The translations under genes and the position numbers were made by a program. The notes beneath the pieces were generated by a model. That model did not search any database. It was given only the letters and a program-made list of their open reading frames with translations, and was not told the DNA's origin. Below are positions 3,521-44,725 of a DNA stretch of 59,477 nucleotides, one piece after another; the stretch's first letter is position 1; every line of letters begins with the position of its first letter. Location of the stretch: the IMG/VR virus record IMGVR_UViG_3300022851_000003. One strand, written 5' to 3'. The DNA comes from a virus.

Positions 3521-3592
3521 ACAACCGACCACCCCAGGCGACCCTTTGAGATCGCCCAATCACACAATGCTTCATCACGCCCGCAAGGCGTC

Positions 3593-4591: not shown

Positions 4592-6046
4592 ATGGCATTC
4601 CAGCGGCGAAACGATGCCCCCGCCGATCAACGGCGGGAGGACGCAACCAAGTTCATGCAGGAGCTTACGGGCATTCCTGCGCGATCCATCGGTTCGCAGA
4701 TTTCCCCCATGCCTGCGGTTCCGCAGCCATCGAGCCCGCTTGCCTCGGTCGGACAGCCACCTACCGAGAATTCGCTGGAGGCTATCCCCGCAGCCGCAGC
4801 CGTGTCAACGATCGACGTGTTCGCGGGTATGGAAGATCCCGGCGATCCACCGATCACCGCATTCGATGAGTCGCCTCCTGACACAAACGAAACTGCGATA
4901 GAGCAGGTCGAATTGACGCTGGAGGACTCGGTCGCTACGGAAGCGGAGACCGCACCTGAGCCTTTGCCTGACTCTTCGATCGACACAGAGCCAGCGTCCG
5001 AACCCGCGATTGAGCAATTGCCCGAAACTGAGACGGCTCCCGAAGCGGAGATCCCGCCCGTTCCAGTCGCAGAGATGCAGCCGATGGTTGCGCCTGACGT
5101 GTCACATTCCGATAGGTCGCCCGATTTCGTGACGCCGGACCCTGTCGAGCCACAGCAACTTGATTCGCCGGATGAACCGATCGTGTCAGCGGAACCACCG
5201 ACCGCCGACATTCCATCGACGCCACAGTCCAACCAAGGCGACGACCTGCCGTTCTGGGCTCGCTATTCCGCACCCGTTGACGTGGAGGTTATTCAGGCCG
5301 GCGGCAATCCAATGATGGCCCGGCGATCGGACTTGACGCACGAACAGAAGATGGAAATCGCCGAGCGAAATACATCCGAACGGCAACAACTCCGCGAGGA
5401 ACGCCAGGAGCGATACGATCAGCGACAACCCGAACGAGACAGCCCGCCGTCGAACGCAACGAGCGATAGCACCGAAACGATCCAAGCACCCCTGTTGTTC
5501 TCCGATCCGCCTGCGAGTGATTCAGCACCAACGGAACCGACGCAACAGAGCGAGCCTGACAACGATCCGCCTGAGCAGGCACCGCAATCGTCTCAGACCG
5601 ACGAGGTGGCCGCTGATAGTGATACCGCATCGCCACCGAACATTGCTGCCAATGTGCCGCTCACTGCTGAGAATTTTGAACTGATTCGCCAGATGGTGAT
5701 GGAAGCCACAGGGCGACCACAGTCAGGGCAGCGGACGATCCCGGTCTCGCCCCAACCGTCCACGCTCAACCCGCAGGTCGCCAATGCAAGTCCAGTTGCA
5801 TTCGATCCCGAACCCACGTCGCAGATCGACACATCGCAAGACGCTCAGTACACCGAGCCCTTGGCGATGGCAAATGATTTCATCGACCGACACAATGAAG
5901 TCATCCGAATGATTATCGACGCCTTGTCCCGACTGACCGCTGGCTACACAGTCCATCGAGCGCGACTCTCAACGATCCTCGATCGACTTGACTCCGAATC
6001 GCAATCGAACGAATACGGTGAAGGAGACTCGACATGGATGGGGTAA
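4592..6046 (+). CDS. acidic Pro/Glu/Asp-rich low-complexity protein
   Basis: 484-aa ORF; long runs such as PEPLPDSSIDTEPASEPAIEQLPETETAPEAE. Confidence 0.5.
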   Translation: MAFQRRNDAPADQRREDATKFMQELTGIPARSIGSQISPMPAVPQPSSPLASVGQPPTENSLEAIPAAAAVSTIDVFAGMEDPGDPPITAFDESPPDTNETAIEQVELTLEDSVATEAETAPEPLPDSSIDTEPASEPAIEQLPETETAPEAEIPPVPVAEMQPMVAPDVSHSDRSPDFVTPDPVEPQQLDSPDEPIVSAEPPTADIPSTPQSNQGDDLPFWARYSAPVDVEVIQAGGNPMMARRSDLTHEQKMEIAERNTSERQQLREERQERYDQRQPERDSPPSNATSDSTETIQAPLLFSDPPASDSAPTEPTQQSEPDNDPPEQAPQSSQTDEVAADSDTASPPNIAANVPLTAENFELIRQMVMEATGRPQSGQRTIPVSPQPSTLNPQVANASPVAFDPEPTSQIDTSQDAQYTEPLAMANDFIDRHNEVIRMIIDALSRLTAGYTVHRARLSTILDRLDSESQSNEYGEGDSTWMG

Positions 6047-6789
6047 CGTTCTACCACGGCGACTTCACGCATCGACCTTGCGAGGTGTACCCGAAACGGT
6101 TCAGTGTCCAAAACCTTCGTGGTGCCAATGGTATCACCTGGGCCAAGAAGTACACGCTGGAGATTGGTGGTGATCTCGTCGGTGCCGATGGAACCGAACT
6201 CGATGCGAACGAGGTGGTGGCCCGCATCGCCCTCCTCGACGCGGCCTACGCGGACGAGTACCAAAACTGCGGGTTCACCATGCAGGACGGCGCGACTACC
6301 GTTCACACGTTACTGACAAACGACGCCGCGAACCTAACTGGCAACCGCATCGTCTACCGTTCATGGGAGCACCTTCACCCAGGCGAGCTTGCCAACACCC
6401 GGTCTTTTGCTGTTCGCTTTGAAGCCCTGTTTCGACACGACAACGGCCCCGTGTTTCAATACACCGAGCGAACGCGCAAGTTTGGAACCGGCGGGCCAAT
6501 GTGGAAATTGTACGAAGCCGCCAACGGAACAATCCAAAAAGTATTCGTCACCCCCAAAACCAAGGTGGTTCACATCACTGCGGGCGAACTGGTCAGTGGC
6601 GTCCCGTTGCCGCCAACCGACCCGCTCTGGCCCCTGGAAGAACAAGGGTGGCGGCGAGAGATTGAGATCGGAACGCCGGTCGACCATGGTCATCCGACCG
6701 GCAAGTTCACGCACTACCGTACCCGCTGGCAATACCACTTTGAGAGACTGGGTCCAAGCGCTCTGACCTCGACACCGAGGTACGCGTAA
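6034..6789 (+). CDS. hypothetical protein
   Basis: 251-aa ORF, overlaps upstream gene end. Confidence 0.5.
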   Translation: MDGVTFYHGDFTHRPCEVYPKRFSVQNLRGANGITWAKKYTLEIGGDLVGADGTELDANEVVARIALLDAAYADEYQNCGFTMQDGATTVHTLLTNDAANLTGNRIVYRSWEHLHPGELANTRSFAVRFEALFRHDNGPVFQYTERTRKFGTGGPMWKLYEAANGTIQKVFVTPKTKVVHITAGELVSGVPLPPTDPLWPLEEQGWRREIEIGTPVDHGHPTGKFTHYRTRWQYHFERLGPSALTSTPRYA

Positions 6790-14928: not shown

Positions 14929-15136
14929 CTGCAAAGGCAATGATCGCCACACCGGTAGCAATAAACACTGCCGGTAGAGTTCGATTATGCAGTTGCACGA
15001 TAGCGAGCGAAGATCGATCCATGTTTGTGACGTACGAAGGACCGCTTAACGTCCTGCCGTCTTGCCGACAAGTGAAAGCGGCATAGAAAAAAACTAAGCC
15101 TGCTACCACCAAGAGAGCCCTCTTTACCATGTCCAT
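14903..15136 (-). CDS. candidate small two-helix membrane protein (antisense, moron-like)
   Basis: 77-aa ORF filling the gap between two plus genes; two hydrophobic helices; GGGAG 7 nt upstream of ATG. Confidence 0.3.
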   Translation of the reverse strand: MDMVKRALLVVAGLVFFYAAFTCRQDGRTLSGPSYVTNMDRSSLAIVQLHNRTLPAVFIATGVAIIAFAAKGSASDS

Positions 15137-18100
15137 CTACGATCTCCCTGTTGCCACTGCAACACGCCCCGGCCGTCTTCGTGGCCGATCGATCTATGAC
15201 AACGCCGGGTACGCTGCGCCGCCGATCGGTTTGGGCAATCTGCCCTCGCTTGCCGCCCCCACCATGCGAGTCGCGGGAGGGGCAGCATCGATTTACGATA
15301 CACCAAACCTGCCACCGATGCAGCCAGTTCCCGGTGCCGACCAGGCTGGACCCGCTGCGATGGGACCGCCAGTGGATCCCGACGATCCGTCTCTGTTCGC
15401 TCAAGCCCGCGACGTGGGACTCGGCGGATTGTCCATGCTTGGCAACTTACTCGACATTCCCGGTTCCATGGTTCGGGACGCTCTGACGTGGATCCCAGGC
15501 GGCATCGCGGCCCGCAATCCGTTAGACCAATTGCTCTCGCCGCTGTCCGACCAGAATCGCACGACGGGCGAGGAACTACTTCGCCTGGATGAGTGGCAAC
15601 CGGATTCGTGGTACGGATCGGTCGGTAAGTTCGGGGCTGGAATGGCTGCGGAAATTGCATTGGACCCCCTCACTTACATAACGCTCGGTGGAACCGCGCT
15701 GACGAAAACGGGTGGTCAACTGGCATCGCGGGCGGGAATGATGGGCGATGCCGCAAACGTCGCTAACCGCAAACTCGCAGCCCAAGCTGCCGAGGCCGGG
15801 ACCGACGCGGTGACCGTCGGCGCGAGAGAAGCACGGCAACTGGTCAATCCCCGCGAACTGGCGGCAAACCTCGATGAAGCCTCGCGTCGCAAGTTCCGTG
15901 ACGGAACGACCGGGGACATCCTCGACGATGCTGTCGAAACCGTTGCGCACACAGACGGCCACCCCATCGGCGTCGAAGAACTCGTGCGGTCCTACAACGG
16001 CATGAACGCTCGCGCCATCAAAGCCGGCGAGATGCCCGCTGCCAGTTTGTCCGACGACATGATCGATGCGTTCCGCACGGGAACCGCGTCGACCGATGAC
16101 CTGCTCGCTCAATCGAACATCCCGGCTGATTACCTCGACGAAGCGATCGGTGGAAACTTCCGGTTCAAGGTTCCGTTTGCGAACAAGCCGATCAACATCC
16201 CGTTCACCGACAGGGCCATCCCCGACGAATTCGTTTTCAACGACCTACGGTTGCCGATCCCTGGAAAAGCCCGCGAACTTGGCGGGTTGGGTGCGAGAGC
16301 AATTGGTGACCTTCCGATCCCGAAAACCGACAAGCGTATCCAAGACCTGATCCCTGATTTTGCGAGAGACCTGCCCGGCATGGCCGCTGACGGGCGCATC
16401 GAAGGGCGAACGATTGCGCGTGCGATGGACAAGACCGCCGATGCGGTGATGAATAACCGTCCAATGCTGACGGTGTCTTCGATGTTTGACCGAGTGGGTC
16501 GCGAAGCCAAGCACAAACTTTCCCGTGCCGCTGCCCGTGAATCGGCTCAACGTGGCGAAGAGATGGCTCGTGTTGTGCGAGAAGAAGCTGCGGGACCAAT
16601 GGCTGATGCTGACAAGAAAATGCAAGCCTACAGCCGAACCGAGGGCGTCACACAACAAGACGTACTGGACACTCAGTTCGATATTTTGGATCGCATGGAG
16701 GGAGCCTTGACCGACGATCAACTTAGTCCCGTTGCTGCTCAGTTCCAGCCTGCGATGGACTTCTTCACCAACGCCTTCCGCACGCAAGCCGATCAAGCAG
16801 AGGCGTTCGGCCAAAACCAACAACGGTTGCGTGAAGGCATCTCGTATGAAGTCCCCAAGGTCAACCCTGACGGAACCGAGGTTTTAGGCAAAGACGGAAA
16901 GCCCGAAATCGAAAAGGTTGTTCTGCAAAGTCCCATCGAGTATGTGCCTCGTAACCGGCAAAACGAATCGGGAGTAATGCGCCGCGTTGGCAATGCCATG
17001 AGCAAATCGGGACGGATGATTCAACCCGACGGATTCACCAAGGGCCGCGACGAGGCGATGCGACACCTTCGGACTTCGCAAATTCAACGCATGTCCCTTG
17101 ACAAAAAGTTCGCCGGTCGCGCTGACCGTGGAGTCCTGGGTGGAAAGCGATCGCGAGAACTCGCGGCAGGAAACACCGGGCAGTTTCCCGACACGGGCGT
17201 CATGGGAAGCTCGCTGCTTGAACGCGATACACCCGAGTGGGAACAAGCGTACTCCGCGTTCAAGAAAGCCTACCCGCCCGCAAAAGACTACATGCGACTG
17301 GCCGAACGTGGAGAACTCAAGGACATCAACGGGAACCTGGTCGAGTGGTCACCTGCGCTTGACGAAGCCCTCGACGACAAGCACCGGCAATTGTTCAGCA
17401 AGATCACACAGCTCGATCGCGCTCAGGTCGAGCGTGGTGTTCCGATGTTCGACACCAACGTCTTCCAGGCTGGATTGAACCGACTCGAGTCTGGCTACCA
17501 ATCCGCTGCCCAGGAACTCGGAACTCGAAAACTGCTATCCACGTCCGCACGATTGGCGAAACCACGTCCAGTTGCCGAACAGTCGGCCGCTCCCACAAGC
17601 AAACTTGCCTCCACCTCCGGTCGCAACATCGATTCAATGAACCTGCTTGGCGAGAACGGTGAGAACCTTGAACGTCTCGGACTCAATCACGATCGCGGAA
17701 AACAGAAACTACTGGGCGAATTGGCCGAACAGGGGCACGACATCGACGGCATGGCTGAATCGATCATGGCACCGAAGCGTGATAAAATTGCAACTGAGTT
17801 GACCGAACTGATCGCCAGGAACTCGGACACGCCCATTGCTGACCTGCAAGGACCGATTCGTGAGGCACTGGACAATGACCCCGATTCACTGCTGGCGGCG
17901 ATCACCACCGACGAAGCGATGCAGGAGCGGATCGGGAAGTTGGTTGACAAGTACACCAACGTCGAGGCCAAACCCGATGACATCTTGAAGAAATTCGAGA
18001 TCGACGCGGACTTAGGCAACGACATGATGGCCGTCAACACTCGGTTTTCCACGCCCGAGGAAATCAAAGCGTTCACCGAAGCGTTAGACGCATTCACCAA

Positions 18101-19625
18101 TATGTTCAAGACCAACGTCACCGCCGCGTTCCCCTCGTTCCATACGCGGAACTTGTTCTCGGCCATGATGCAAAACGCACTCAACGGCGTGACCGACACC
18201 TCCGCTACGCGATTGCGAGATCGATTCTTCAAGCCGTACTCGGATGCTCGAAAGGTAATCAATGGCGAGGTTCTTGCGGACGCGAATCAACTACCAGGAA
18301 TGGAAAAACTCTCACCCGAGGAAGCCACCGAAAAGTTCCGAGATGAAATCTTTGCCCAGAAAATCATTGATGCCACGGGCGACCACAACGACATCCCCGG
18401 CCTACCATCGGGTGGCGCGATCGATGCTCGGCCCGGTCAATCGCGTGGTCGTGCGGCGAACTTGCCTGAAAGCAAAGGGTGGGACTTGGTTGAAAAGATT
18501 CCATTTGCTAGGAACTTTGCCCGCAACGTTCGCGAGGCGTCATTGCCACCCAAAAAAACCCGATGGCGGGACACGTTCAACCCGCTCGAAAGTTCGGCCG
18601 TTCGTGGCACACGCGAAGGCACTGTGAAGTACGGCGGTGAGCGAATCGGTCGCGCCCTCGGTAACGAGATTGAATCCACGGTTCGGATCGCCCCGTACAT
18701 TGCCTTTCGTCGACAAGGTTTCACTGCATCAGAAGCCGCCAAAAAAGTTAAATCACTTCAGGTGGACTACAACGACCTAACCAGAACAGAACGCAAAGTG
18801 ATGCGGCGTGCTGCCCCTTTTTATTCGTTCAATAAAGGAGCCACCAAATACCTCGCGGGTGAATTATCCACTCGCCCCGGCGGCCCTGTGGCGATGACGA
18901 TCAAAGCCGCCGAGAACGCATCGGGCAACGACCCCGGCACGCCCGAGTACATTCGCGACGGACTCAACATTCCGCTTGGTGGTGCGGCAGAGGACGGATC
19001 ACGGAACTACCTGACTGGTGCCGGCCTCATGCACGAGCCTCCTGCTCAACTGCTTGGTAATAACATCCAAGAGACATTCTACAACGCAGCCAGCATGGCG
19101 CATCCGATCCCCAAAGCGTTGATCGAATACATCACCGACGAGTCCCTGTTCCTGCGGGACGGCAAGGGAGGCGGACGCGACCTGGACGACATCGACCCGC
19201 CCGTTGGCGGCACACTCCGTAATATCGGCCAATTCACGGGACTACTGGACAAGGAACGCCGTTCCCCCATTGACCTGCCGATCCCATTCGAGAAAGAGTT
19301 TGAACTGGCTGTCGCGAATTCGCCCGCTGCCCGATACCTGTCTCAGATTCGCAAGGCGACGGACAATCGAAAGAACCCTCTCGAAAAGCTGTTAAACGGC
19401 CTAACTGGATTCAATGTCGCCACGGTCGAACCGAATGACCGCGATGCGGTCCTGCGAGAACAACTGGAGCAACTTCTGCGAGACATGGGCGGTCGAACCT
19501 TCAGCCAAGCGTACATGCCCGATACGACACTCGCTGAAATGGGAATGTCGCAGCAAGACCAAGTCGCGAAGATCAAGGAAGCCCTCCGTCAGATCAACGC
19601 ACGACGACGAAACAGCAGCGATTGA
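15129..19625 (+). CDS. very large virion-associated protein (possibly tape-measure or internal protein)
   Basis: 1498-aa uninterrupted ORF ending the structural arc; no catalytic motif recognised. Confidence 0.6.
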   Translation: MSIYDLPVATATRPGRLRGRSIYDNAGYAAPPIGLGNLPSLAAPTMRVAGGAASIYDTPNLPPMQPVPGADQAGPAAMGPPVDPDDPSLFAQARDVGLGGLSMLGNLLDIPGSMVRDALTWIPGGIAARNPLDQLLSPLSDQNRTTGEELLRLDEWQPDSWYGSVGKFGAGMAAEIALDPLTYITLGGTALTKTGGQLASRAGMMGDAANVANRKLAAQAAEAGTDAVTVGAREARQLVNPRELAANLDEASRRKFRDGTTGDILDDAVETVAHTDGHPIGVEELVRSYNGMNARAIKAGEMPAASLSDDMIDAFRTGTASTDDLLAQSNIPADYLDEAIGGNFRFKVPFANKPINIPFTDRAIPDEFVFNDLRLPIPGKARELGGLGARAIGDLPIPKTDKRIQDLIPDFARDLPGMAADGRIEGRTIARAMDKTADAVMNNRPMLTVSSMFDRVGREAKHKLSRAAARESAQRGEEMARVVREEAAGPMADADKKMQAYSRTEGVTQQDVLDTQFDILDRMEGALTDDQLSPVAAQFQPAMDFFTNAFRTQADQAEAFGQNQQRLREGISYEVPKVNPDGTEVLGKDGKPEIEKVVLQSPIEYVPRNRQNESGVMRRVGNAMSKSGRMIQPDGFTKGRDEAMRHLRTSQIQRMSLDKKFAGRADRGVLGGKRSRELAAGNTGQFPDTGVMGSSLLERDTPEWEQAYSAFKKAYPPAKDYMRLAERGELKDINGNLVEWSPALDEALDDKHRQLFSKITQLDRAQVERGVPMFDTNVFQAGLNRLESGYQSAAQELGTRKLLSTSARLAKPRPVAEQSAAPTSKLASTSGRNIDSMNLLGENGENLERLGLNHDRGKQKLLGELAEQGHDIDGMAESIMAPKRDKIATELTELIARNSDTPIADLQGPIREALDNDPDSLLAAITTDEAMQERIGKLVDKYTNVEAKPDDILKKFEIDADLGNDMMAVNTRFSTPEEIKAFTEALDAFTNMFKTNVTAAFPSFHTRNLFSAMMQNALNGVTDTSATRLRDRFFKPYSDARKVINGEVLADANQLPGMEKLSPEEATEKFRDEIFAQKIIDATGDHNDIPGLPSGGAIDARPGQSRGRAANLPESKGWDLVEKIPFARNFARNVREASLPPKKTRWRDTFNPLESSAVRGTREGTVKYGGERIGRALGNEIESTVRIAPYIAFRRQGFTASEAAKKVKSLQVDYNDLTRTERKVMRRAAPFYSFNKGATKYLAGELSTRPGGPVAMTIKAAENASGNDPGTPEYIRDGLNIPLGGAAEDGSRNYLTGAGLMHEPPAQLLGNNIQETFYNAASMAHPIPKALIEYITDESLFLRDGKGGGRDLDDIDPPVGGTLRNIGQFTGLLDKERRSPIDLPIPFEKEFELAVANSPAARYLSQIRKATDNRKNPLEKLLNGLTGFNVATVEPNDRDAVLREQLEQLLRDMGGRTFSQAYMPDTTLAEMGMSQQDQVAKIKEALRQINARRRNSSD

Positions 19626-19630
19626 TCGAA

Positions 19631-19668
19631 CGTGTTACCCTGCGCCGCGCAGGGTAATTACTTGTTAG
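19631..19668. repeat. GC-rich palindromic element, copy 1
   Basis: cgtg TTACCCTGCGCcGCGCAGGGTAA ttacttgtta between convergent stops at 19625 and 19665; near-identical inverted copy at 43347-43384. Confidence 0.6.
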
Positions 19669-19874
19669 GACGACGACCGCCGACCTAGTTTGTAAATCCA
19701 CACGAATGGCCGCGACAGCAACCAAAACGCAGCATAAATCGGCCATCCGAAAATGACCGCCTCGTCCGCGAGTCCCTCGGCACCATCGCGGATTCCATCG
19801 GTACGACCAGCCGCGAACGCGCATCCAGCGACATAGATCACGAACGCGACAACGCACCACCAAAACGTGTTCAT
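19665..19874 (-). CDS. small membrane protein
   Basis: ORF 19665-19934; internal ATG (MNTFWWCVVAFVIYVAG) gives a two-helix peptide. Confidence 0.4.
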   Translation of the reverse strand: MNTFWWCVVAFVIYVAGCAFAAGRTDGIRDGAEGLADEAVIFGWPIYAAFWLLSRPFVWIYKLGRRSSS

Positions 19875-20089
19875 CGCCCCACACCTGCGTCGGCCTGCTC
19901 TACCGCTTCCATGTATCTCGCTGCTTCGCCGCAAACTATCAACGCTCGATGGAATGCGTGAGCCTGTTCGATTGTCTCAAACTTTGCCACTACCCTCGGT
20001 GAATGATTCGGCGATGACTCGCAAGTAATGAACGACGGTGCTCCGGCCACATCGAGCATCTTGATTGCGTCTACTGCTTCCTGACTCAT
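19871..20089 (-). CDS. hypothetical protein
   Basis: 72-aa ORF overlapping downstream start by 4 nt. Confidence 0.35.
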   Translation of the reverse strand: MSQEAVDAIKMLDVAGAPSFITCESSPNHSPRVVAKFETIEQAHAFHRALIVCGEAARYMEAVEQADAGVGR

Positions 20090-20183
20090 GGTCGCGATCC
20101 TAACAAGCCGTTGAAAAAGACGACGGCTTTAAGTTGGTTGGTTTGGTTTTACGTCTTCTCGCCGTCGCTTTTTAACGGCAGCG

Positions 20184-20519
20184 TTACGACGACTCTCGCC
20201 TTTGATTGCACGCATAACAAACGTCGCCCATGTGCATCGTCTTTCGCCCGCAATGCTTACAGCGTATCTCACGGAACTGCCGCAAGTTTCTGACGTTGTC
20301 GTTCATTGGTGGCTCAGGTGCTTCTAGCATCGCTGCAATCGCCTTGCGAATTGCCGTGGATTGTTTTACGCCGTGCTCATCGCACCACGCCTCAAGCGGC
20401 TGGCGAAGATCGCCGAGCCGCACTGTTGAAAAGACTGTCAACGAGGTTGTCTTTCCGATCGTTGAAAGCGTCAGCAACATTCGCGTACTAACGCTCACGT
20501 TCCTGGGTGTTCGTTTCAC
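20184..20519 (-). CDS. putative DNA-binding regulator with C-terminal zinc ribbon
   Basis: Segment LRQPLEAWCDEHGVKQSTAIRKAIAAMLE followed by CKHCGRK...CYAC. Confidence 0.4.
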   Translation of the reverse strand: MKRTPRNVSVSTRMLLTLSTIGKTTSLTVFSTVRLGDLRQPLEAWCDEHGVKQSTAIRKAIAAMLEAPEPPMNDNVRNLRQFREIRCKHCGRKTMHMGDVCYACNQRRESS

Positions 20520-20997
20520 TGCAATCGTGCCAAATATCTACGGCGGAGGGCCGAGCTACGGGGTAGCTGAACGCAGTATTTTTAACACTCAGACCTGGGA
20601 TTACTATTCGGATTCCGGGGTTGAAATCGACGCTGGCGAATATGCCGGTTTGATCGGGCCGCGAACACAAATAGAGTGGGGCGGCGGGTTTCGCGAATGG
20701 CGATTTCAACCAGTGTTTGAAACAACCACTGTCGATTTAACAACCATTAAAATGAATTTCGAACGCAAATGATTTCTAGGAAGATTGATCGGAGTCATCT
20801 ACGGCGATGTCTGCCAATTTGCCACTTATGCCAGCACTTTGCTGCATACGATTCAGACGGAAATTGTGGGTGTTTGTTACTGCGATCAAATTACAACATT
20901 TGCCCAGGCAAGATCGGCAAGCACTTGCTGCACGGCAAAGGATGCTTGGCCAATCCGCCGTTGTTCTTGTCTGCGAAAACAGAAAATCCCCAACACG

Positions 20998-21022
20998 CCG
21001 CATCACTGCGCGCAGGGGAATA
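20998..21022. repeat. degenerate copy of the palindromic element
   Basis: CTGCGCGCAGGGGAATAACAAG just downstream of the PAPS-reductase-like gene stop. Confidence 0.3.
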
Positions 21023-21042
21023 ACAAGTTCTCTGGATCTTCT

Positions 21043-21909
21043 TTACACGAAACACATGCCGAGCGTGCATTGCTGCACCTTTTCTGCCGATTCGTCGTAG
21101 TCAATATCCGCTTCGGCTAGAGGCACTCGACTGTGATGCAAGAAAACACCGCCTTGCTCGTCCGCTTCGCGAACTTCGCTGTCCGTTTCAATGGCTTTCT
21201 GCCATTGCTCGGGGTAGTTGTCACGGATGTCACGCCATTCGGCGTTGCGCTTGTGCGGGCACATCCAGCAAGACGACTGCTTAGGCAACGGCCAACCAAA
21301 CTCTTTAATGATCGTTAAACATGAGTGAGTGTTTAGCATCAAATCGACCAACGGACAAACCGTTGTCCATCGACCTTCGGTCTTGTGATGCAAGCCCTTC
21401 CATCGCTTCTTTTCTTCGATTCCAAAGCCTAGCCAACGCGTTCCGCCCTTGATTCCTTTGGCCCGCAAGTGTCGATCAACGACACGTTTCTTCCATTCGT
21501 TACTGCAATATGTTTTCAACTTTCCGGTCTGTGTGAACACAGGGAGCAACAGATCACCGTTGCCGGAATACATGTCGACCGTGGCTAGATCGTGGCTTGC
21601 CACTTCGACAGGACATCCGAGTTCGGTCATCATCGGTTGAGTGTACTTTTCGAGGTATTCCCATGTCGTCGGATTTTCTCGGCTGGTGTCTGCCATTACG
21701 ACAACATCAGGCTTCGGCAAAACGCCTTTGGCTATCATGATGCACATCGCAACGGTTTGGCGACCTCCACCGTAGTTGAAGACCAGAGAACAATTTGTTG
21801 CTGCGGATTTGCCGATTAAGTTTATTGGTTTGGTCATAGTTTTTTCTCGCGATGGCGGGACAATTCGAGCGTTACCACGACCTACGTGGCCTTCAAAAAT
21901 ACGATCCAA
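21043..21909 (-). CDS. PAPS-reductase-family protein (ATP pyrophosphatase fold)
   Basis: VVMADTSRENPTTWEYL matches the DTGxxFPET core of the PAPS reductase family; degenerate PP-loop FNYGGGRQT; Cys pair CWMCPHKR. Confidence 0.6.
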   Translation of the reverse strand: MDRIFEGHVGRGNARIVPPSREKTMTKPINLIGKSAATNCSLVFNYGGGRQTVAMCIMIAKGVLPKPDVVVMADTSRENPTTWEYLEKYTQPMMTELGCPVEVASHDLATVDMYSGNGDLLLPVFTQTGKLKTYCSNEWKKRVVDRHLRAKGIKGGTRWLGFGIEEKKRWKGLHHKTEGRWTTVCPLVDLMLNTHSCLTIIKEFGWPLPKQSSCWMCPHKRNAEWRDIRDNYPEQWQKAIETDSEVREADEQGGVFLHHSRVPLAEADIDYDESAEKVQQCTLGMCFV

Positions 21910-22413: not shown

Positions 22414-23091
22414 TTAGTCTTCCGCTCGCGACCACATATCGCAAGCGTTCACAAAATCCGGTATCCACAGGCTAAAGCTACGACCTCGGTTCATTAACGC
22501 AATCGCGCGGGACGCATGGTAGATGTCGGGCCTCAATGTTCTCTCGGCGCCCATCGTAGTCCATGGCACCTCCACTGCGTAAGTCTCGCAATGAGATCGC
22601 TTGATCGCTTTCTCCGACCCAGTCTCGAACATCTTCCAGAATGGATGATTGTCTCGAACCGGGAACGCGTACGTGATCGCTGGAATCACCTTTGTTTTCA
22701 GTTCACGACGGTTCCAGTGAATCAAAAAGAAGCAAGCCGAACCGAACGACGCACGTTCGTACATGAACTTCAGTTGACGTGACCTCGCCTTTCGCATCTC
22801 AATGCGATACTTACTCAAGTCGAAACTGGCTTGGCTACAAACCTTCGCATCGAAGACAACTTCTTGCTGAGGTGTTCCGAACACGCCCTGGTAATCCGGC
22901 AACGATGCGATGAGTCTCGCACGAACTGACCCATCAGGAAACCTCTGCATCGGCACCGCAAACACACCTGGTTTATCGACTGCCATCGCCCGCTCTTGCT
23001 TCAACCATGATAATCGCGGATCGATCAAATCTTGGAAGCCGGTTCCGGTTAGATGATCTTCGCAAGTGACAAGTGGTTCTGTCTCCATCAT
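22414..23091 (-). CDS. hypothetical protein
   Basis: 225-aa ORF in the same operon as the methyltransferase. Confidence 0.5.
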   Translation of the reverse strand: MMETEPLVTCEDHLTGTGFQDLIDPRLSWLKQERAMAVDKPGVFAVPMQRFPDGSVRARLIASLPDYQGVFGTPQQEVVFDAKVCSQASFDLSKYRIEMRKARSRQLKFMYERASFGSACFFLIHWNRRELKTKVIPAITYAFPVRDNHPFWKMFETGSEKAIKRSHCETYAVEVPWTTMGAERTLRPDIYHASRAIALMNRGRSFSLWIPDFVNACDMWSRAED

Positions 23092-28282: not shown

Positions 28283-29290
28283 TCAGCTTGCCTCCCATTC
28301 TTTCTTGTAGTTCAGGTAATTCGGCATTGGCAGCGACAACACATCTCCGTAATGTTCGTGCTTCCAGATACCGCTCGACTCGCATCGACGCAGACCACGG
28401 AACGCCTTCTCGATCTCTTCGACCGCTTGATCGATCCAAGCCGGTTCCAATTCGTAGACCTCCACGCGATAAGGTTTCTTTTTCTCAACGCAGACGAAGT
28501 GAAACGGAACCTCGCGACCCAGCAACGCGTTGACCATGCTGCCGTACAAGACTCGTTGCCGGGCATACCCGAAGTCGGCGACCGCGTTGGCAAACCCTTT
28601 CGGTGATGCACTCCGCACGGTCTTCAAGTCGGCAACGAAACCGCCCATCGCCGTCTCGCTATATCGATCCAACTTGCATCGCGTCAGAATGCCGGTGCCC
28701 GCGTGCTCGCCGATCAACGGAACCTCGCTTTCACCTTCACCGAACAGCAGACGATTGGCCGAGTCGTGAGCACGCAAGGCGTCCTCCATGTCACGAAGCT
28801 GATCGTACGTCTCGTTCGACGTGACAACCTGGCCCTCGGGAACAACGACCGACGATCGAACCTTTTGCTCGAGCTGATCGAACTCCTCGCTTTTCATCAA
28901 CACGCTGCCCTTATGCAACTTGGCCCAATCCGTGTAAGGCTTGCCACGGCAATAACCTTGCTCGTTCAACACATGATCGGGAATCCGAGTCGCGATCCGA
29001 AACTTCGAGGCGATCTTCAAATACTCATTACGCGAAACCCCGGTCACTTCGGGATCCAGCACGGTCGACGTTTGCAGCCCACCCTCGAGCGTCATCTCAT
29101 GAAGGGCGGTGCCGAGCAATCTATCCGGCGTATCGCCACTGGGTTCGATCAGACCCGTGTTGTAAAGACCGTCGTACAGAGCCGGGTCATCGAGGAACCT
29201 GCTCATCTTCGAGTTACTGACGCCTGGCCCAGCGTGATACTCTTCGTTGGTGCCAGCATCAAAACGTTCAATAGCGGTGAACTGAATCAC
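28283..29290 (-). CDS. RecE/YqaJ-like PD-(D/E)xK exonuclease
   Basis: N-terminal EEYHAGPGVSNSKMSRFLDDPALY typical of exonuclease VIII-like proteins; directly upstream of recT; GTG start overlaps csrA stop. Confidence 0.6.
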   Translation of the reverse strand: MIQFTAIERFDAGTNEEYHAGPGVSNSKMSRFLDDPALYDGLYNTGLIEPSGDTPDRLLGTALHEMTLEGGLQTSTVLDPEVTGVSRNEYLKIASKFRIATRIPDHVLNEQGYCRGKPYTDWAKLHKGSVLMKSEEFDQLEQKVRSSVVVPEGQVVTSNETYDQLRDMEDALRAHDSANRLLFGEGESEVPLIGEHAGTGILTRCKLDRYSETAMGGFVADLKTVRSASPKGFANAVADFGYARQRVLYGSMVNALLGREVPFHFVCVEKKKPYRVEVYELEPAWIDQAVEEIEKAFRGLRRCESSGIWKHEHYGDVLSLPMPNYLNYKKEWEAS

Positions 29291-29466
29291 TTATCATTAC
29301 TTTCATTCTTGGGTTGGGTTTGAATAATGTCATCCCGATGGATGTCGATGGTCCGATCCGCGTCGATACCGATACGAACCTTGTCGCCACGAATGTCAAC
29401 GACAACGACCTTGATGTCCTTGCCAATCATGATGGCTTCACCAATGCGTCTACTAAGAACCAACAC
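29287..29466 (-). CDS. csrA: CsrA/RsmA-family RNA-binding regulator
   Basis: VLVLSRRIGEAIMIGKDIKVVVVDIRGDKVRIGIDADRTIDIHRDDI aligns with CsrA ([46 protein letters not shown]); GTG start 6 nt after GGGAG. Confidence 0.7.
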   Translation of the reverse strand: MLVLSRRIGEAIMIGKDIKVVVVDIRGDKVRIGIDADRTIDIHRDDIIQTQPKNESNDK

Positions 29467-29509: not shown

Positions 29510-29594
29510 TCGAGGCGATCGGAATCGAACCGACGCACGCCACCTTTCCGCAAACGCTTCTTAAATGGCCGCTCTACCAGTGAGCTACGCCTCG
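29510..29594 (-). tRNA. tRNA-like element with non-canonical anticodon region
   Basis: Acceptor CGAGGCG/CGCCTCG, D-arm GCTC-ACTGGTA-GAGC, T-arm GTCGG-TTCGATT-CCGAT; a 4-bp stem with a 23-nt loop replaces the anticodon arm. Confidence 0.4.
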
Positions 29595-30539: not shown

Positions 30540-31706
30540 TCACGATTGTTTGTACGGCGATTCATCGAAGTCGATCTTCCCTTGCAGATCACCGACGTAG
30601 AATTTCCGCGTCGTTGTCTCGCTCGAATGCCGCAGGATCTCCTGGCACAGTTGGATAGGCATCCCACGCAGGCTCCATCGCGTGACCATGCTCGACCGGA
30701 AGTGTTTGGCCGTGGCCGTCTTCGGTGGCGACCCGGGTTCGGCGATCACCTCGGCCTTGGCTCCGATCGCGGAGATCAGCTTGGACAGAGCGGTTCGGTC
30801 TTTCACTTCGCCGGTCTCGCAACGCGGCTGGTAAATCGCTTCCGTCCGATCCGCCCGCTCCCGCAGGTGCGATGCGAAGTCGTTGGTAATCCTGGCGACC
30901 TGCGCACGCCGGTTCTTCTGGGCGGAAGTCCACGACATCATCGGTGTCGGCGTGTCGAGTCCGATCGGGTAATGCCAGTCACGGCGGGTTGCGTGCATCC
31001 CCAACGGCTCTCGCATCCGACAACCACTGAGCCAAAGAGCTTCCAGGTATTCCTGAACACTCGCCGCCGACCGGGATCCAACCAGGCCCGGGCAAACGTC
31101 CTGCATCTTCCGCAGCGATTCCTCACTGATCGGGATCAACCGCATCGCAGGAAGGTTCTGCTCTTGTCGGCCACGTCTTCGATTCGGCGGCATGTATCGC
31201 ATCAACTCCAGGGAAGCCGCCCACGAAAGACCGCTTCGGAGCGTTGCCATGTAACTCGGGATCGATCCGACCGCGATCGGCTTAAAGCCATCAATCCCCC
31301 GTCGAAGCGCAGTTTCCACCGAGGCGAGGAACAGAGGGGACACGTCCGAAAGAACGAACTCCCCTTGAATGTCCCGGCCCGCAACGGCATCGACGCGTTT
31401 ACAGACGGCAGACCACTTGTATCGGTTGTCGCTCGATGTGTCACTGAGATGGTCAGTCAGGTAGCGATCGCAGAAACGATCCCACGTCCATCCCTCGTTC
31501 CCCGAATTCAGCTTGGAATTCAGTTTGCTCTGAAGCTCGTCGGCCAGTTTATCGGCCGCTCGCTTCGATCTCTTGGAACGGGTGATGATTTCGGTCTTCT
31601 GGGTCTTAACAGACCGCGAGCCGAAGGGCCGCCACTTCAAGTAGTAGCAGCCCTTCGACGATTTCCAAAACGCGCTCACCCGCACAGTGGGCGCACAATG
31701 ATTCAT
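30540..31706 (-). CDS. int: tyrosine integrase
   Basis: C-terminal catalytic region KHFRSSMVTRW ... LRHSSETTTRKFYV (HxxR, H, Y); next to tRNA-derived att core. Confidence 0.8.
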   Translation of the reverse strand: MNHCAPTVRVSAFWKSSKGCYYLKWRPFGSRSVKTQKTEIITRSKRSKRAADKLADELQSKLNSKLNSGNEGWTWDRFCDRYLTDHLSDTSSDNRYKWSAVCKRVDAVAGRDIQGEFVLSDVSPLFLASVETALRRGIDGFKPIAVGSIPSYMATLRSGLSWAASLELMRYMPPNRRRGRQEQNLPAMRLIPISEESLRKMQDVCPGLVGSRSAASVQEYLEALWLSGCRMREPLGMHATRRDWHYPIGLDTPTPMMSWTSAQKNRRAQVARITNDFASHLRERADRTEAIYQPRCETGEVKDRTALSKLISAIGAKAEVIAEPGSPPKTATAKHFRSSMVTRWSLRGMPIQLCQEILRHSSETTTRKFYVGDLQGKIDFDESPYKQS

Positions 31707-33043: not shown

Positions 33044-33060
33044 GAACGAAGTTGCGACAC
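33044..33060 (+). promoter_or_regulatory. TTGCGACAC motif, copy 1
   Basis: GAACGAAGTTGCGACAC; related copies at 44797-44817 and 54991-55021, all intergenic. Confidence 0.3.
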
Positions 33061-33632
33061 TTTTGATTTTTTTCCTTCCAATTGGTTGACGTTTACTGAA
33101 GAATCCGTAGGTCGGGTGTCGAGAACCGATGAAAGTTTTGAAACATCTCGACCAGGGGAACAGACGAAGCGGTCCCCGCGCCACCATGAGCTAGCACCTC
33201 AGCACCAACCGCTTCACCAAAGTCTGAAAGCTCAGGCCGGGTGAGAAACCCATAAGTCAGCCCTGAGCCAGCAAACCCCTTGCAAATGACTGACGGCGTG
33301 GACTGACAGGTAACCCCTGAACAGCGAGTGTGAGCCGGTGATTAACCTTAATCACAAATCTGGATCACTGGAAACCGTTCTGTAAACGCAGAAGCAAAGC
33401 GATAATCCCCCCTTATAAGTCACAGTCTACCCAGCTTCCCCAGTTCAACGACCGTTGGCCCTGTGGGGGACTAAATAGTTTGGGTGGGATATATAGTATA
33501 CAGCGGGGCCGGTCGGGGTCGGGCCACCCCCATCGACGTAACTCCTTGCTGCTGCTTGACTTACGCACGGCGAACGCGAACGAAAAGGATCAGGCATCTC
33601 GTTTCCACCATAAAACCGAATGCATGTCCCTG

Positions 33633-34060
33633 TTACGAGTTCTTGGCGAGTGCCTCGTCGGTAGTGGATTTGCCAGCGTTCACTGCTTGCTTGGCCTTCT
33701 CCACGCGATAGCTCGGCACGTTCAATTCGATGCTCACGCTGTGATGCACCAACAAGCTGCATGTCGTGAAGAGAACACTGCGTCCCGATAACACCAACTG
33801 CTCCGCCAACGCACATAAGGCATGGCTCTTCCCCGAGCCCGGTTTGCCGAACAGCAGAAGATTCTCTCGGCGATCCAAGAACGATCCCAGGAGATTCCCA
33901 GGAATACTTATCCACAATTGCTGCAGCGGTTTGAGTAGGCGAATCGTTGGATCTGAGCGTCGGTAGCGTGTTCGGAATTGCGCTTGTGGAAAATATTCTT
34001 GCGAGAATCGGAATTGACTTGCTGCAACGAGCTCGCGTAACGTCTCGCCAGACGTTTGAC
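33633..34060 (-). pseudogene. DnaC/IstB-like AAA+ ATPase fragment
   Basis: LLLFGKPGSGKSHALCALAEQLVLSGRSVLFTT (Walker A) but only about 55 aa follow and no Walker B; N-terminal region also short. Confidence 0.4.
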
Positions 34061-34107
34061 ACTTTGTCAGACGCAAACGCAATCCCGATAACCTAAAGGA
34101 TCGGATT

Positions 34108-35192: not shown

Positions 35193-35666
35193 TCAACGGT
35201 TCAGTTGAGCCTTGACTCGATCGCCCATCGTTGATGCCGATTTAGCGGGCGTCTTGGCCTGCTTCGCGGGTTGAGCGGCCGCCGACGCCTCGTTTGACGG
35301 CGCCCCCCCCTGCGATGATATGAACTGGGCGAACATTGCGAGCATCTCGGCCGGCATGGCCGGCATGGCCGGCATGGCAACTGTCGGCGCTTCCACTGTC
35401 GGCGCTTCCACTTTCGGCGCTTCCACTTTCGGCGCGGCCTGCTGTGCCGTGGCTGCGTCCATCGCGTCGAGCATCTTTTGGAACGTCTTAGCGTCGCCAA
35501 GAATCGCGTGCAATTCGTCGCGATAGATGGAGCGGAAGCGCCCCCGGGCACCAGCCTGCAATTGCAGAACTGGTGTAGCATCGGATCGTCCACCGAACGT
35601 GGTGAGCTGTGCTGTAAAAGTCGTTTTGCCATGGACGACTTCCGAAATGATCTGATTCGTGGTCAT
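35193..35666 (-). CDS. hypothetical protein with internal tandem repeats
   Basis: 157-aa ORF containing APKVEAPKVEAPTVEAPTVAMPAMPAMPA. Confidence 0.5.
   Translation of the reverse strand: MTTNQIISEVVHGKTTFTAQLTTFGGRSDATPVLQLQAGARGRFRSIYRDELHAILGDAKTFQKMLDAMDAATAQQAAPKVEAPKVEAPTVEAPTVAMPAMPAMPAEMLAMFAQFISSQGGAPSNEASAAAQPAKQAKTPAKSASTMGDRVKAQLNR
35351..35440. repeat. in-frame tandem repeats (9-bp x3 and 15-bp x4)
   Basis: CGGCATGGC x3 then GTCGGCGCTTCCACT x4 inside the CDS. Confidence 0.6.
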
Positions 35667-35793
35667 TGTGATTCTCCAGTTTGTGAATCAAGTGAACGTC
35701 TTGCCCCGGTCTGTCGCCGGGTTCGTTTCAAGGTGCCGAGGGGGGTGGTTGGTCATGGATGCGTTGCGATGCGAACGCGATACGTCTATCGAA

Positions 35794-41062: not shown

Positions 41063-41593
41063 ATGGACATTCCCAATCTAATCAATCGGATGCGTAGCGG
41101 TGACACACTCGCTGCCCGTGGATTGATCGAGGCACAACGACACGGACGGGCGCTGCGATTGTATCCCGACGGACGCAACGGACCCAACGACGAAGGCGTC
41201 GCACCAATCCTGCTGGAACAAACCGAAAACCTGCTCGTCCATCTGCGACTAGGGCGACCCTGCATTGTCGTTCTCCGACGCGACCAACTCGGCCCGGTCT
41301 TGATGTTCCTGTTCCGCTGCTCTGCCCGTATGATGGCGAACCTAGATCGGTACGATGAATCATCGATCACGCCAGGCATCGGATACCAGACCGGATGCAC
41401 CAACGATCCATGGAAAATCGTGATTTCCTTTTCACCACACGGGCGAATCGATTACGATCTCGGCATCGAGGACTGCATCAGTATCATTACTTCATGGCTT
41501 ACGTTCATCGACCAGCACGAGTGGGAAATCGACGACTGCTCGCTGACCGACGAAGAATACATGGCCCTTTCCCATATCGCCAATCATGTGTGA
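41063..41593 (+). CDS. hypothetical protein
   Basis: 176-aa ORF. Confidence 0.45.
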   Translation: MDIPNLINRMRSGDTLAARGLIEAQRHGRALRLYPDGRNGPNDEGVAPILLEQTENLLVHLRLGRPCIVVLRRDQLGPVLMFLFRCSARMMANLDRYDESSITPGIGYQTGCTNDPWKIVISFSPHGRIDYDLGIEDCISIITSWLTFIDQHEWEIDDCSLTDEEYMALSHIANHV

Positions 41594-41717
41594 ACGCTTG
41601 CGATAACCGGTCGGCTTCGTGGCACTCATTGATCCTCAAAAGACAAAACCAAAAACCAATTTTACAACCCTCCCCAGATGATCGCCGATCCGCGTTCATC
41701 GCATTGTTACTCGTCTC

Positions 41718-42575: not shown

Positions 42576-42901
42576 AAGTTGGCGACCAAGTGGAAGTGAT
42601 AGACGAAGGGCTGGCGATGCTTCGCCGATTGTGTCCGGGGATGCCCCCGAACCATCGCGGAAGGATCGAGGAAATCGACGGCGAAGATGGCAAAGCACAA
42701 CGGACGGCGATACATCGGGATCGAAGTGAACCCGGAGTATTGCGAGATTGCAGAGAAACGCTTAGCGCAACAAGTGCTGTTCTAGGTCAGGGGAACGCTG
42801 CCGATAAAAAGCGACGGCGAGAAAACGTAACCATCACCAACCAACCCAAAGCCGTCGTCTTTTTCAACGGCTTGTTACGATCGCGACCAGTAAAACCATG
42901 A
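42563..42901 (+). CDS. hypothetical protein (reading frame uncertain)
   Basis: 112-aa ORF; a methyltransferase-like remnant is encoded in another frame inside it. Confidence 0.3.
   Translation: MAELKVGDQVEVIDEGLAMLRRLCPGMPPNHRGRIEEIDGEDGKAQRTAIHRDRSEPGVLRDCRETLSATSAVLGQGNAADKKRRRENVTITNQPKAVVFFNGLLRSRPVKP
42603..42785 (+). pseudogene. C-terminal remnant of an N6/N4 DNA methyltransferase
   Basis: 60-codon open frame ending GSRKSTAKMAKHNGRRYIGIEVNPEYCEIAEKRLAQQVLF, resembling the FxGSGTT...GRxFIGIE C-terminus of amino-methyltransferases; no N-terminal half. Confidence 0.4.
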
Positions 42902-43203
42902 TTACGAAAACCCGGAAAGAAGTGACGGAAGCGGTGTTGTCAGCATTGCACCAAGAGATCGGCGGTGACGTTTTGTTCCGCGAAGTTTACTACGGGCTGT
43001 TTTGGAACGGTCCGGAGAAAGAGCGATCGCCGGAGCAGTGGTTTGACGACTTTCAGTGGTTCACGAAAAAGTTCATTCACATCGCGGCAGCGAAAGACTT
43101 GCTGTTCGCGTGGCATACGTGCAATCCCGATAGCGACATCACGCCGACAGGATTCAGTGATGATCAGATGACGATGCACTTCAAGCGGAAGTCGTCGTCG
43201 TAA
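42898..43203 (+). CDS. hypothetical protein
   Basis: 101-aa ORF. Confidence 0.4.
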   Translation: MITKTRKEVTEAVLSALHQEIGGDVLFREVYYGLFWNGPEKERSPEQWFDDFQWFTKKFIHIAAAKDLLFAWHTCNPDSDITPTGFSDDQMTMHFKRKSSS

Positions 43204-43346: not shown

Positions 43347-43384
43347 TAACAAGTAATTACCCTGCGCCGCGCAGGATAACACAC
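43347..43384. repeat. GC-rich palindromic element, copy 2 (inverted relative to copy 1)
   Basis: taacaagtaa TTACCCTGCGCcGCGCAGGATAA cacac; about 230 bp upstream of the serine recombinase operon. Confidence 0.6.
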
Positions 43385-43407: not shown

Positions 43408-43617
43408 ATGCCTCTTCCCGATCTGACGACTCGCCAGCAATCCACTCTCATCAACAAGGTGGATCACAACTGCCGTCGAAATGGCAAGAGATTCCTGCGT
43501 GATCTCGGCGGAACTGGGCACGCCGCTGAACTCGACGCGCAATTACAAATCGCCCGTAACAATCCCGATGCGGTGAAAGCCGCCGAACTCTTTACGAAGG
43601 AGAAAGATCGGAAATGA
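43408..43617 (+). CDS. small protein co-transcribed with serine recombinase
   Basis: 69-aa ORF; stop overlaps recombinase start. Confidence 0.4.
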   Translation: MPLPDLTTRQQSTLINKVDHNCRRNGKRFLRDLGGTGHAAELDAQLQIARNNPDAVKAAELFTKEKDRK

Positions 43618-44438
43618 AAGTCATAGGATATGGTCGTGAATCGACCGCCGACCAATCGATTTCTGCCGAAGTGCAGCAGCGACAATGCCGCGAGTGGTTT
43701 GACCGAACATTCAAGGACAATCCTGACGCGAAGTTTGTGCGAATGCTCAACGACGAGTCCGTCTCAGGCAAGACACGCCTGTTCCAACGTCCGCAGGGGA
43801 GTCTCCTGTTGACCATGCTCGAACGAGGCGACACCGTCGTCGCGTCCAAAATGTCACGGATGTTTCGATCCATGCCCGACACGGTCAACACGCTCGACGT
43901 GTTCAATGAAGCCGGCATCAAGGTCGTGCTGCTCGACATCGGCATGGACTTCGACACGCCAGTGGGCAAACTAATCTTCCACATCCTCGGGGCAGTCAAT
44001 CAGTTTGAACGCGAACTAATCTCCGAGCGGACCAAGGAAGCTCTCGCCCAGCTCCGTGAACGTGGCCAATACCTCGGCTCACCACCGCCGGGGTGGAAGT
44101 TCGACAGCAAGCGGACCAACGGGATTCGGGAACTGATCCCTGACATGGACCGCCGCACCTTCGGGGAATACTCCCTCGATCAACTGGTCGAAGGCCGATC
44201 CGCCAAGTCGATTGCCTGCGAGATCGAAGCACTATTGCGGCGCGAGCACATCCAACGACACGGCACCAACCTGAAGGAAAAACGAGAGAAGATCGCGTTC
44301 TCCGACACCGATGTCGTTCGACTCGCCGCCTTTGCAGTGGCCGGGTTCCCGCCGATCAATAGCACGGCGCTGAAAAAAGTCCTCGGTGTCAATCCATTCC
44401 GAGTTGAAACCCTGCGGCAACTGGCAGCGTCCGCCTAA
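43614..44438 (+). CDS. serine recombinase (resolvase/invertase family)
   Basis: N-terminal VIGYGRESTADQS with catalytic Ser context; resolvase-like core through QFERELISERTKEAL; C-terminal extension. Confidence 0.75.
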   Translation: MKVIGYGRESTADQSISAEVQQRQCREWFDRTFKDNPDAKFVRMLNDESVSGKTRLFQRPQGSLLLTMLERGDTVVASKMSRMFRSMPDTVNTLDVFNEAGIKVVLLDIGMDFDTPVGKLIFHILGAVNQFERELISERTKEALAQLRERGQYLGSPPPGWKFDSKRTNGIRELIPDMDRRTFGEYSLDQLVEGRSAKSIACEIEALLRREHIQRHGTNLKEKREKIAFSDTDVVRLAAFAVAGFPPINSTALKKVLGVNPFRVETLRQLAASA

Positions 44439-44725
44439 CCGGACTTCGAGCCGATGAATTCTTTCGCCCAGCGGATCGTGCTGTAGCGGACGTTGCCGAT
44501 CCACTGGATCTTCAGTGTCTTGGAATGCTTCTTCTTCTTCCGTGAGAGCCCGCCGGTTGCCCATCGCTGATACGTGCGATACGTGCAATTGATGACACCC
44601 GCCTTCTCCATCGCTTTCGCAAGCTGCGGTAGCGTCATCAGGGTTGTCTCCTCAGCGACATCCTGATCGCCCCAAATCTCTTGCGCCTCGTGGCTTGTAG
44701 CCACCGTCTTCTTCGTCGCAGTCAT
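44435..44725 (-). CDS. HTH DNA-binding protein (excisionase/MerR-like)
   Basis: ORF 44435-44776 begins with TTG; ATG at 44725; segment MTLPQLAKAMEKAGVINCTYRTYQRWATGG. Confidence 0.45.
   Translation of the reverse strand: MTATKKTVATSHEAQEIWGDQDVAEETTLMTLPQLAKAMEKAGVINCTYRTYQRWATGGLSRKKKKHSKTLKIQWIGNVRYSTIRWAKEFIGSKSG

Follow-up and report, generated by a model that had tools for sequence, protein, structure and literature searches.

The palindromic element that follows the last late gene of this phage, here called Y, occurs in the window (the whole stretch of 59,477 nucleotides that was analyzed) as two mutually inverted copies, and each copy is the outermost member of a mirror-image set of three short elements, Z, X and Y, that fences a region of variable accessory genes. 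Our preferred reading, held tentatively and drawn by analogy with the promoter-early stem-loops (PeSLs) of T4-type phages, is that Y may be a cassette-end stem-loop, a weak inward-facing terminator or insulator that would also serve as a homology patch for cassette shuffling. The argument starts from the architecture of the two regions, the breakpoints between strains, the strand asymmetry of Y and its absence beside homologous recombinases, all of which were directly observed. An earlier note on this DNA had described the inverted repeat and suggested termination, binding of a dimeric regulator or site-specific inversion as its function. Its interpretation is partly supported overall; it missed two further collinear inverted pairs (X and Z) and the hypervariable DNA just inside each Y.

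Genome organization

The first and last 127 bases of the window are identical (1-127 = 59351-59477, an exact direct repeat), which shows the window to be an assembly of 59,350 bp that is circular or permuted and not a linear fragment. The plus-strand arc carries, in order, a 69-aa ORF, a 274-aa small serine recombinase, the major capsid protein, the large terminase, the portal, tail genes and a 1498-aa protein. This order is interrupted before the major capsid protein by a 96-aa minus-strand ORF convergent with the recombinase, which looks like a real gene from its coding score of 0.285, its GC3 of 0.75 and its match at E = 2e-8 to a counterpart in the relative L053. The 23.7-kb early/recombination segment consists of two divergent operons: the leftward one holds a tyrosine-recombinase-like gene, CsrA, a PDDEXK exonuclease, RecT, RecU and then accessory genes, and the rightward one DUF932 and many unknown genes. 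One copy of Y (Y_A) is the junction of the leftward arm with the end of the late arc, and the other (Y_B) is the junction of the rightward arm with the recombinase operon. The earlier statement that the two copies part a structural from an early arc was borne out, since they separate the mostly structural plus-strand arc (from 43.4 kb via the origin to 19.6 kb) from the segment with the two divergent operons. The genes nearest to Y on the outside are:

15129..19625, + strand: last late-arc gene, 1498 aa; ends 9 nt ahead of the Y_A stem; conserved in relatives, with no palindrome after it there
43408..44438, + strand: 69-aa ORF and 274-aa small serine recombinase; Resolvase N-terminal domain; best solved relative is the Gin invertase
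44435..44725, - strand: 96-aa ORF; N-terminal sequence helix-turn-helix-like by eye, no family match; convergent with the recombinase

Isolated phages gave neither a megablast match nor a tblastn match to the portal, and none of them is related to this phage. The large terminase (952 aa, 48583-51441) is longer than those of its relatives (~581-586 aa) and has a LAGLIDADG domain at residues 766-815; its tblastn matches in isolated phages are confined to the intein-like insert, cover only residues 460-919 and lie within unrelated host proteins. The extra sequence fits an intein or a homing-endonuclease insert. Alignment of the portal against genome contigs returned only two short MAG contigs, one from Gemmatimonadetes and one from Pirellulaceae, too weak a match to name a host.

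Two inverted copies of element Y

A repeat search of the window recovered Y as a pair of inverted 36-nt arms, at 19632-19667 and 43347-43382, that are 94% complementary (34 of 36 bases):

19632..19667, + strand: Y copy 1 (Y_A), GTG-TTACCCTGCGC-C-GCGCAGGGTAA-TTACTTGTTA; the + strand gives a hairpin and an interrupted U-tract
43347..43382, - strand: Y copy 2 (Y_B), inverted copy, 34/36 bases; 25 nt before the operon of the 69-aa ORF and the recombinase

The whole-genome pattern search that had been proposed as a check on the repeat found two full copies of Y and none in shuffled sequence. The core TTACCCTGCGC-N-GCGCAGGGTAA had exactly two matches in the window, with 0.00 expected from 100 shuffles, and so had the pattern of flank plus half-site (0.00 expected, 100 shuffles). 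The repeat is confirmed as real and non-random. The element had been described as a 38-bp palindrome in inverted copies; an inverted repeat is present, but the unit common to both copies is 36 nt, the palindrome of copy 2 is imperfect and the central base is not inverted. Y_A and Y_B differ at that central base and by a G-to-A change, by which Y_B has GGATAA where Y_A has GGGTAA and its palindrome becomes imperfect. On the + strand both copies have a central C, which becomes C or G when the copies are oriented by their flanks. The dyad is 11+1+11, odd-centred and GC-rich at its centre, its symmetry continues through the would-be loop, and the palindrome as DNA has a fold z-score of -3.9. The conserved flank is asymmetric, 10 nt long at one end of the dyad and 3 nt at the opposite end. 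The degenerate third copy that had been reported proved to be, at ~21009-21032, one half-site with one mismatch plus AACAAGT, with a blastn-short E of ~0.6, and is not significant; half-sites of Y are not enriched in the window (11 found, 12.6 expected).

Copy 1 does lie between convergent stops, filling the 39-nt gap from the TGA of the 1498-aa gene (19623-19625) to the TAA of the last minus-strand ORF (19665-19667), and this TAA falls within Y_A. Copy 2 lies upstream of the recombinase operon as had been claimed, but the distance is only 25 nt, to the 69-aa ORF (43408-43617), and not the ~230 bp given before; because this ORF overlaps the recombinase start, Y_B stands directly in front of the operon.

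Lax Rfam searches of both arms found no known RNA family at X or Y, and at gathering score the sole Rfam match in the whole window was a tRNA-like sequence at 29.5 kb. Two other identities were considered for Y and rejected. Tn3-like 38-bp terminal repeats were dismissed because Pfam scans of most of the larger ORFs contained no DDE transposase, and they are also disfavoured by the 1498-aa gene beside Y_A, a conserved late gene in relatives that have no repeat. A protelomerase-type telomere site was rejected by reasoning, there being two copies, each of only 23 bp.

Two other assemblies break at the palindrome. In scaffold L004 a 20-N gap (2412-2431, window 43355) begins 9 nt into Y_B, and the short contig L082 ends 13 nt into Y_A (window 19655). 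The sequence coming from inside is the one that breaks in both, which could reflect strain heterogeneity inside Y or hairpin-related trouble in assembly.

Direction and strength of the predicted terminator

Y had been suggested to be a bidirectional terminator without a U-tract. It is terminator-like, at best weakly, but in one direction only, with the flank TTACTTGTTA forming an interrupted U-tract on one strand. A loose consensus terminator scan called Y_A on the + strand and Y_B on the - strand, both facing into the segment. The hairpin consists of a 10-pair stem with a 3-nt loop, and the inward RNA has a dG of -15.2 for Y_A and -12.6 for Y_B. On a d'Aubenton-Carafa-type discriminant the inward directions scored -8.5 and -18 and the outward directions -49 and -77; five canonical terminators (A-tract/GC-stem/T-tract) in this genome reached +10 to +48. 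The inward tail UUACUUGUUA reached a T-score of 2.5 against 2.9-5.4 in these canonical terminators, and the outward direction has no U-tract. As judged from these scores, Y may at best be a weak, inward-only terminator.

The last late gene stops 9 nt ahead of the Y_A stem, which places Y_A at the 3' end of that unit. For the 96-aa gene, whose transcript would run leftward, Y_B is the terminator-like site met first, 1 kb downstream. The differences between Y_A and Y_B are neutral for the inward hairpin, being one loop base and one G·U on the - strand RNA; on the outward (+ strand) RNA of Y_B the G-to-A change gives C·A. A comparable hairpin after the big gene was found in none of 33 relatives, and therefore the family needs no terminator there.

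Intrinsic terminators occur at convergent operon junctions in phages, TD1 of phi29 being an example. Like this type of terminator, Y_A is a GC-rich hairpin that stands exactly between convergent genes, 9 nt downstream of the final gene of the late arc. On the other hand, the U-tract of Y is interrupted and confined to one strand, its score is below that of the canonical terminators of the genome, its loop is part of a perfect dyad and a near-identical second copy lies 23.7 kb away.

Mirror-image elements and accessory-gene regions

Three inverted pairs are collinear, with Y outermost, then X and innermost Z. They enclose two accessory-gene regions, one at the distal end of each of the divergently transcribed arms, and within each region the order from the inside out is Z, variable genes, X, variable genes, Y:

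20089..20185, - strand: X copy A (X_A), 97 nt, ends at the ATG of a 72-aa ORF
42794..42889, + strand: X copy B, ~91% identical to X_A, ends 8 nt before the ATG of a 101-aa ORF
22437..22449, - strand: Z copy A, exact 13-mer AACGCTTGCGATA, ~25 nt at 88% when extended; inner boundary of region A
41593..41605, + strand: Z copy B, the same 13-mer AACGCTTGCGATA, starts at the stop codon of a 176-aa gene; inner boundary of region B
21816..21881, - strand: partial X-like sequence upstream of a 264/288-aa gene; deletion junction in strains L071 and L075-L080
19665..20089, - strand: arm A cassette genes, a 72-aa ORF (19871-20089) and a 69-aa two-helix membrane-like ORF (19665-19874)
42898..43203, + strand: arm B cassette gene, a 101-aa ORF with a good coding score

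X, Y and Z thus occur twice each in the genome, besides the one partial X, and are its only notable inverted repeats. X sits ~420-460 nt inside each Y. X_A contains two inverted GCCGTT-N7-9-GACGGC motifs around a CCAA-rich loop, and most other strains have kept no more than its 3' 72 nt. Z is related to the start of X, and its core also occurs at cassette junctions in strains L076 and L166. The inverted arms are patchily similar (97 + 36 + 13-25 nt). Because each element is sense-oriented in its arm and the arms diverge, the copies of Z, X and Y are mutually inverted, and no inversion event is therefore needed to explain their orientation.

The DNA between the elements is unrelated in the two arms and the cassette proteins of arm A are unrelated to that of arm B, tblastx and blastn comparison of the two arms revealed no hidden paralogy beyond X and Y, and none of the cassette ORFs had a family match. 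A search for the sigma-70 consensus, which may not be the promoter type of the host, gave no match in X, Y or Z. The 101-aa ORF is followed by a 17-nt remnant resembling the start of X and by a weak hairpin (43211-43236). Three small ORFs end in (R/K)-x-S-S-(S)-stop, encoded by GTCGTCGT..TAAC, near 19665-19680, 20184-20200 and 43190-43210; the motif stands just before X, Y or the X-start remnant as a recurring cassette-end junction motif.

Strain variation and breakpoints

Accessory DNA differs among strains that are ~99% identical or better, and the breakpoints fall at the inner edge of Y or inside X and Z. The exact patterns of Y and X found only the same phage among viral contigs, and nothing among genome contigs or in a first scan of metagenomes; a second scan of metagenomes with a degenerate pattern gave two informative strain variants. 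These contigs, L166 and L167, one for each copy of Y, are 99.4-99.8% identical to the window outside Y and switch to unrelated sequence exactly at the inner edge of Y, before AACAAGTAATTACCC. The DNA that they carry inside Y is foreign and not that of the opposite arm. The inner junction of L166 falls in the Z core. In many other strains (L071 and L075-L080) a deletion or replacement junction lies within X-like homology, and 20161-21815 of the window is replaced via this junction. The same Y element borders five different inner contexts.

In the relatives L163, L053, L164 and L006 region B (41591-43382) is absent, and the 176-aa homologue is followed directly by a small ORF and then by the recombinase, an arrangement that marks accessory region B as an insertion. 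X and Y were found only in this species, save for one diverged Y (TGAACAAGTTATTATCCTGCGCCGCGCCGGAATAATCC) in L065, whose portal is 62% identical, where it lies directly after a stop codon in the same arm. This Y keeps ~23/25 core bases in a phage whose proteins are only 38-62% identical. Across the three Y sequences the stem pair 17-33 reads C-G, U·G and U-A on the inward strand, which also carries the U-rich tail and is the strand read by late-arc transcription. With three sequences and one pair the covariation is not significant (an equally high score came from 328 of 500 shuffles), and the pattern is no more than suggestive. When a covariance model of the three distinct Y sequences was run over 2.1 Mb of loci from relatives, no additional copy was detected.

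A possible role in termination and cassette exchange

For Y, a conserved stem-loop of 35-36 nt at the outer (3') end of each accessory region, we infer two roles, as an RNA hairpin and as a homology patch. The hairpin with its interrupted U-tract would form on the strand entering from the conserved late arc. At copy 1 it would cause a partial stop or insulate against read-through from the late operon, and at copy 2 it would act likewise on the leftward transcript of the 96-aa gene. Outward transcripts would cross Y, which the recombinase operon behind copy 2 requires. Y, along with X and Z, would also provide short patches of homology at which RecT and the exonuclease, or host recombination, could swap accessory cassettes between genomes; that the phage encodes RecT and a PDDEXK exonuclease was counted in favour of this role. 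Several findings weigh against the preferred reading. The dyad symmetry through the loop is not required by a function in RNA, the transcript arriving at copy 2 must first run 1 kb antisense through the recombinase gene, the terminator score is below threshold, the 33 relatives have no comparable hairpin after the big gene, the covariation is not significant, and there are two copies per genome as opposed to tens for PeSLs.

PeSLs of T4-type phages are short conserved intergenic regulatory motifs that bound cassettes of orphan genes (PMC2839356, PMC4122927), and they recombine via homology patches of <50 bp (PMC2839356). The elements described here are similar in being conserved short intergenic stem-loop motifs that flank small orphan genes of variable, hyperplastic regions, and in both systems the breakpoints of indels and replacements between near-identical phages fall in the motifs. 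The differences lie in composition and layout. Three distinct elements with two copies each are found here, whereas PeSLs are one composite motif in tens of copies, and the present elements form mirror-image sets on two divergent arms. A PeSL has its stem-loop with or without a promoter-like part; Y lacks a promoter part, and its U-rich tail faces against the cassette genes.

If the preferred reading is correct, an uncultivated phage lineage would confine its accessory genes, which probably deal with host defence, to two regions fenced by short conserved elements, and the fencing elements would shape transcription and guide recombination alike. The principle of the T4-type PeSLs would then also hold, in another layout, for a family of phages unrelated to them. 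The elements give exact boundaries for finding fast-evolving phage genes in metagenomes. They also call for caution: a DNA switch should not be deduced simply from an inverted repeat that lies next to a recombinase gene.

A more active version of cassette exchange, which we regard as improbable, would make the mirror-image Z-X-Y sets docks through which a phage-encoded system passes accessory genes from arm to arm and from one co-infecting phage to another. The mover could be the RecT/exonuclease pair or the serine recombinase acting on a hairpin-forming Y, and occasional flips of the whole 23-kb early module would yield low-frequency isomers as in cyanophages; minor isomers and exchange intermediates are invisible in assemblies.

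Alternative explanations for Y

The reading of Y as the crossover site of the adjacent small serine recombinase had been raised in the earlier note. The enzyme would flip the 23.7-kb segment in the manner of Gin or Hin, which now appears extremely unlikely. The gix, hix and cix sites of Gin, Hin and Cin are 26 bp long (12+2+12), have an A/T-rich centre around a 2-bp overlap and flank segments of ~1-4 kb, which are found in both orientations. Y resembles them in having two inverted sites with a small serine recombinase gene directly next to one of them, on its outer side, as in gix-gin of Mu, and the Gin invertase as the best solved relative of the enzyme speaks for the same reading. So do the absence of other notable inverted repeats besides X, Y and Z and the possible presence of a separate tyrosine integrase, which would leave the serine enzyme without an obvious job. 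Serine recombinases cleave with a symmetric 2-nt stagger about an even-centred dyad, and the 11+1+11 GC-rich dyad of Y therefore does not match this; its odd centre, with a central base that differs between the flank-oriented copies, departs from gix-type sites, as do its lack of conservation with the recombinase and the single orientation seen. For a Y-Y inversion the predicted recombinant junctions are GATCGAACGTGTTACCCTGCGCSGCGCAGGGTAATTACTTGTTATCCGCACTTGATG (junction 1) and GGTCGTCGTCCTAACAAGTAATTACCCTGCGCSGCGCAGGATAACACACCAGACTG (junction 2). The two parental junctions are each spanned by ten distinct contigs (20 in all, from many samples), all of which have the same isomer, at the level of assemblies. 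Homologous recombinases in L163, L053, L164 and L006 (73-40% identity) come directly after the upstream gene and have no palindrome nearby. The closest distinct one, that of L163, is 73% identical and its upstream ORF 78% identical. Moreover, since the segment is divergently transcribed, both isomers would share one transcriptional topology. Large invertible modules have precedent: a ~30-kb invertible region flanked by inverted repeats of 400-700 nt was recently reported in Anabaena cyanophages, where both isomers coexist and isolates differ in orientation (bioRxiv 10.64898/2026.02.14.705889). The 22.6-23.7 kb bracketed here by inverted-repeat arms (X to Y ~550-590 nt, more with Z) is comparable, but only ~133 nt of each X-to-Y arm are similar and every assembly has one orientation. 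Recombination of another kind, with Y as an attC- or dif-like site where a phage recombinase inserts or exchanges cassettes, is highly improbable. Breakpoints at one identical position of Y in two independent strain variants, at both copies, would suit such a site, as would the hairpin-forming sequence, the serine recombinase gene adjoining Y_B and the tyrosine-recombinase-like gene inside the segment; yet homologous exchange at a short conserved patch predicts sharp breakpoints equally well, and the closest recombinase homologues have neither Y nor cassettes beside them. Y does not by eye fit the integron attC core (GTTRRRY / RYYYAAC), and the junctions at X and Z behave alike despite their different sequences.

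Y may instead have no function of its own and be the leftover end of an accessory region duplicated or exchanged between the arms; it would persist only through being recent and would serve passively as homology. We consider this unlikely. X and Y are confined to this species apart from the diverged Y of L065, the copies of X and of Y have diverged alike (~5-9%), and relatives do without Y at both positions, all of which a relic would explain; it would not lead one to expect that ~23/25 core bases and the stem are kept in L065, at 38-62% protein identity, that the inner edge of Y is sharp and identical in five contexts, or that three short elements are kept at 88-95% while the interiors of the regions are wholly replaced. 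Quite unlikely, too, is a binding site for a dimeric DNA-binding protein, either a phage regulator or a roadblock, which was among the earlier suggestions and for which nothing specific was found. The candidates would be the 96-aa ORF (helix-turn-helix-like by eye), a possible ribbon-helix-helix ORF of 111 aa, or the recombinase at an accessory site; accessory resolvase subsites can show odd spacing, res site III being a case, and to that extent the odd centre of Y is compatible with such a site. A perfect 11+1+11 dyad spanning the would-be loop, the strength of the palindrome as DNA (fold z-score -3.9) and the position of Y_B, 25 nt ahead of the ORF that opens the recombinase operon, also argue for protein binding. 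The half-sites are, however, not enriched and a genome has only two sites, Y_A is placed between convergent genes, where a site that controls initiation would be pointless, the conserved flanks are unequal (10 nt and 3 nt), the G-to-A change breaks the DNA symmetry of Y_B, and Y is missing from relatives that have homologues of the recombinase and the 96-aa protein.

Other features of the genome

A 388-aa protein (30540-31706, - strand) has a weak Phage_integrase match and C-terminal HxxR...H...Y motifs. About 1 kb from its gene lies the 85-nt tRNA-like sequence (29510-29594, - strand), which scored 48 bits in Rfam and was not called by ARAGORN; the two may form a lysogeny module with an attP-related piece of tRNA. 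The genes for the exonuclease and RecT are immediately preceded by a 59-aa CsrA-family gene (29287-29466, - strand).

Three copies of the 15-mer ACGAAGTTGCGACAC are present, all on the + strand (33046-33060, 44803-44817 and 55007-55021; two copies exact and one with one mismatch). Each copy precedes a gene block, and the Z core has the hexamer TTGCGA in common with it; the copies are likely promoters. A motif of ~24 nt, ACCACCCC(C/G)..CACCACCTTG, has seven intergenic copies in the rightward early operon (35721-40591), six direct and one inverted, and could be a family of promoters or regulator-binding sites. Between the divergent arms, ~1 kb (33080-34100) has no ORF with a good coding score and may be an origin, a regulatory region or a non-coding RNA. 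At 35380-35435, in or beside a 157-aa minus-strand ORF, the 15-nt unit ACTGTCGGCGCTTCC is present in three to four tandem copies.

In the relative L065 a TnpB/IS605 OrfB gene (5640-6776) splits the structural region, and in L067 the leftward arm holds an Acb2/Tad1-hairpin (anti-defence) gene (19926-20165). Strain L166 has ~1 kb of the 1498-aa gene (3419-4405, window ~18825) swapped for a version of ~67% identity that is closest to that of L067, which from the sequence is a mosaic exchange inside the late gene.
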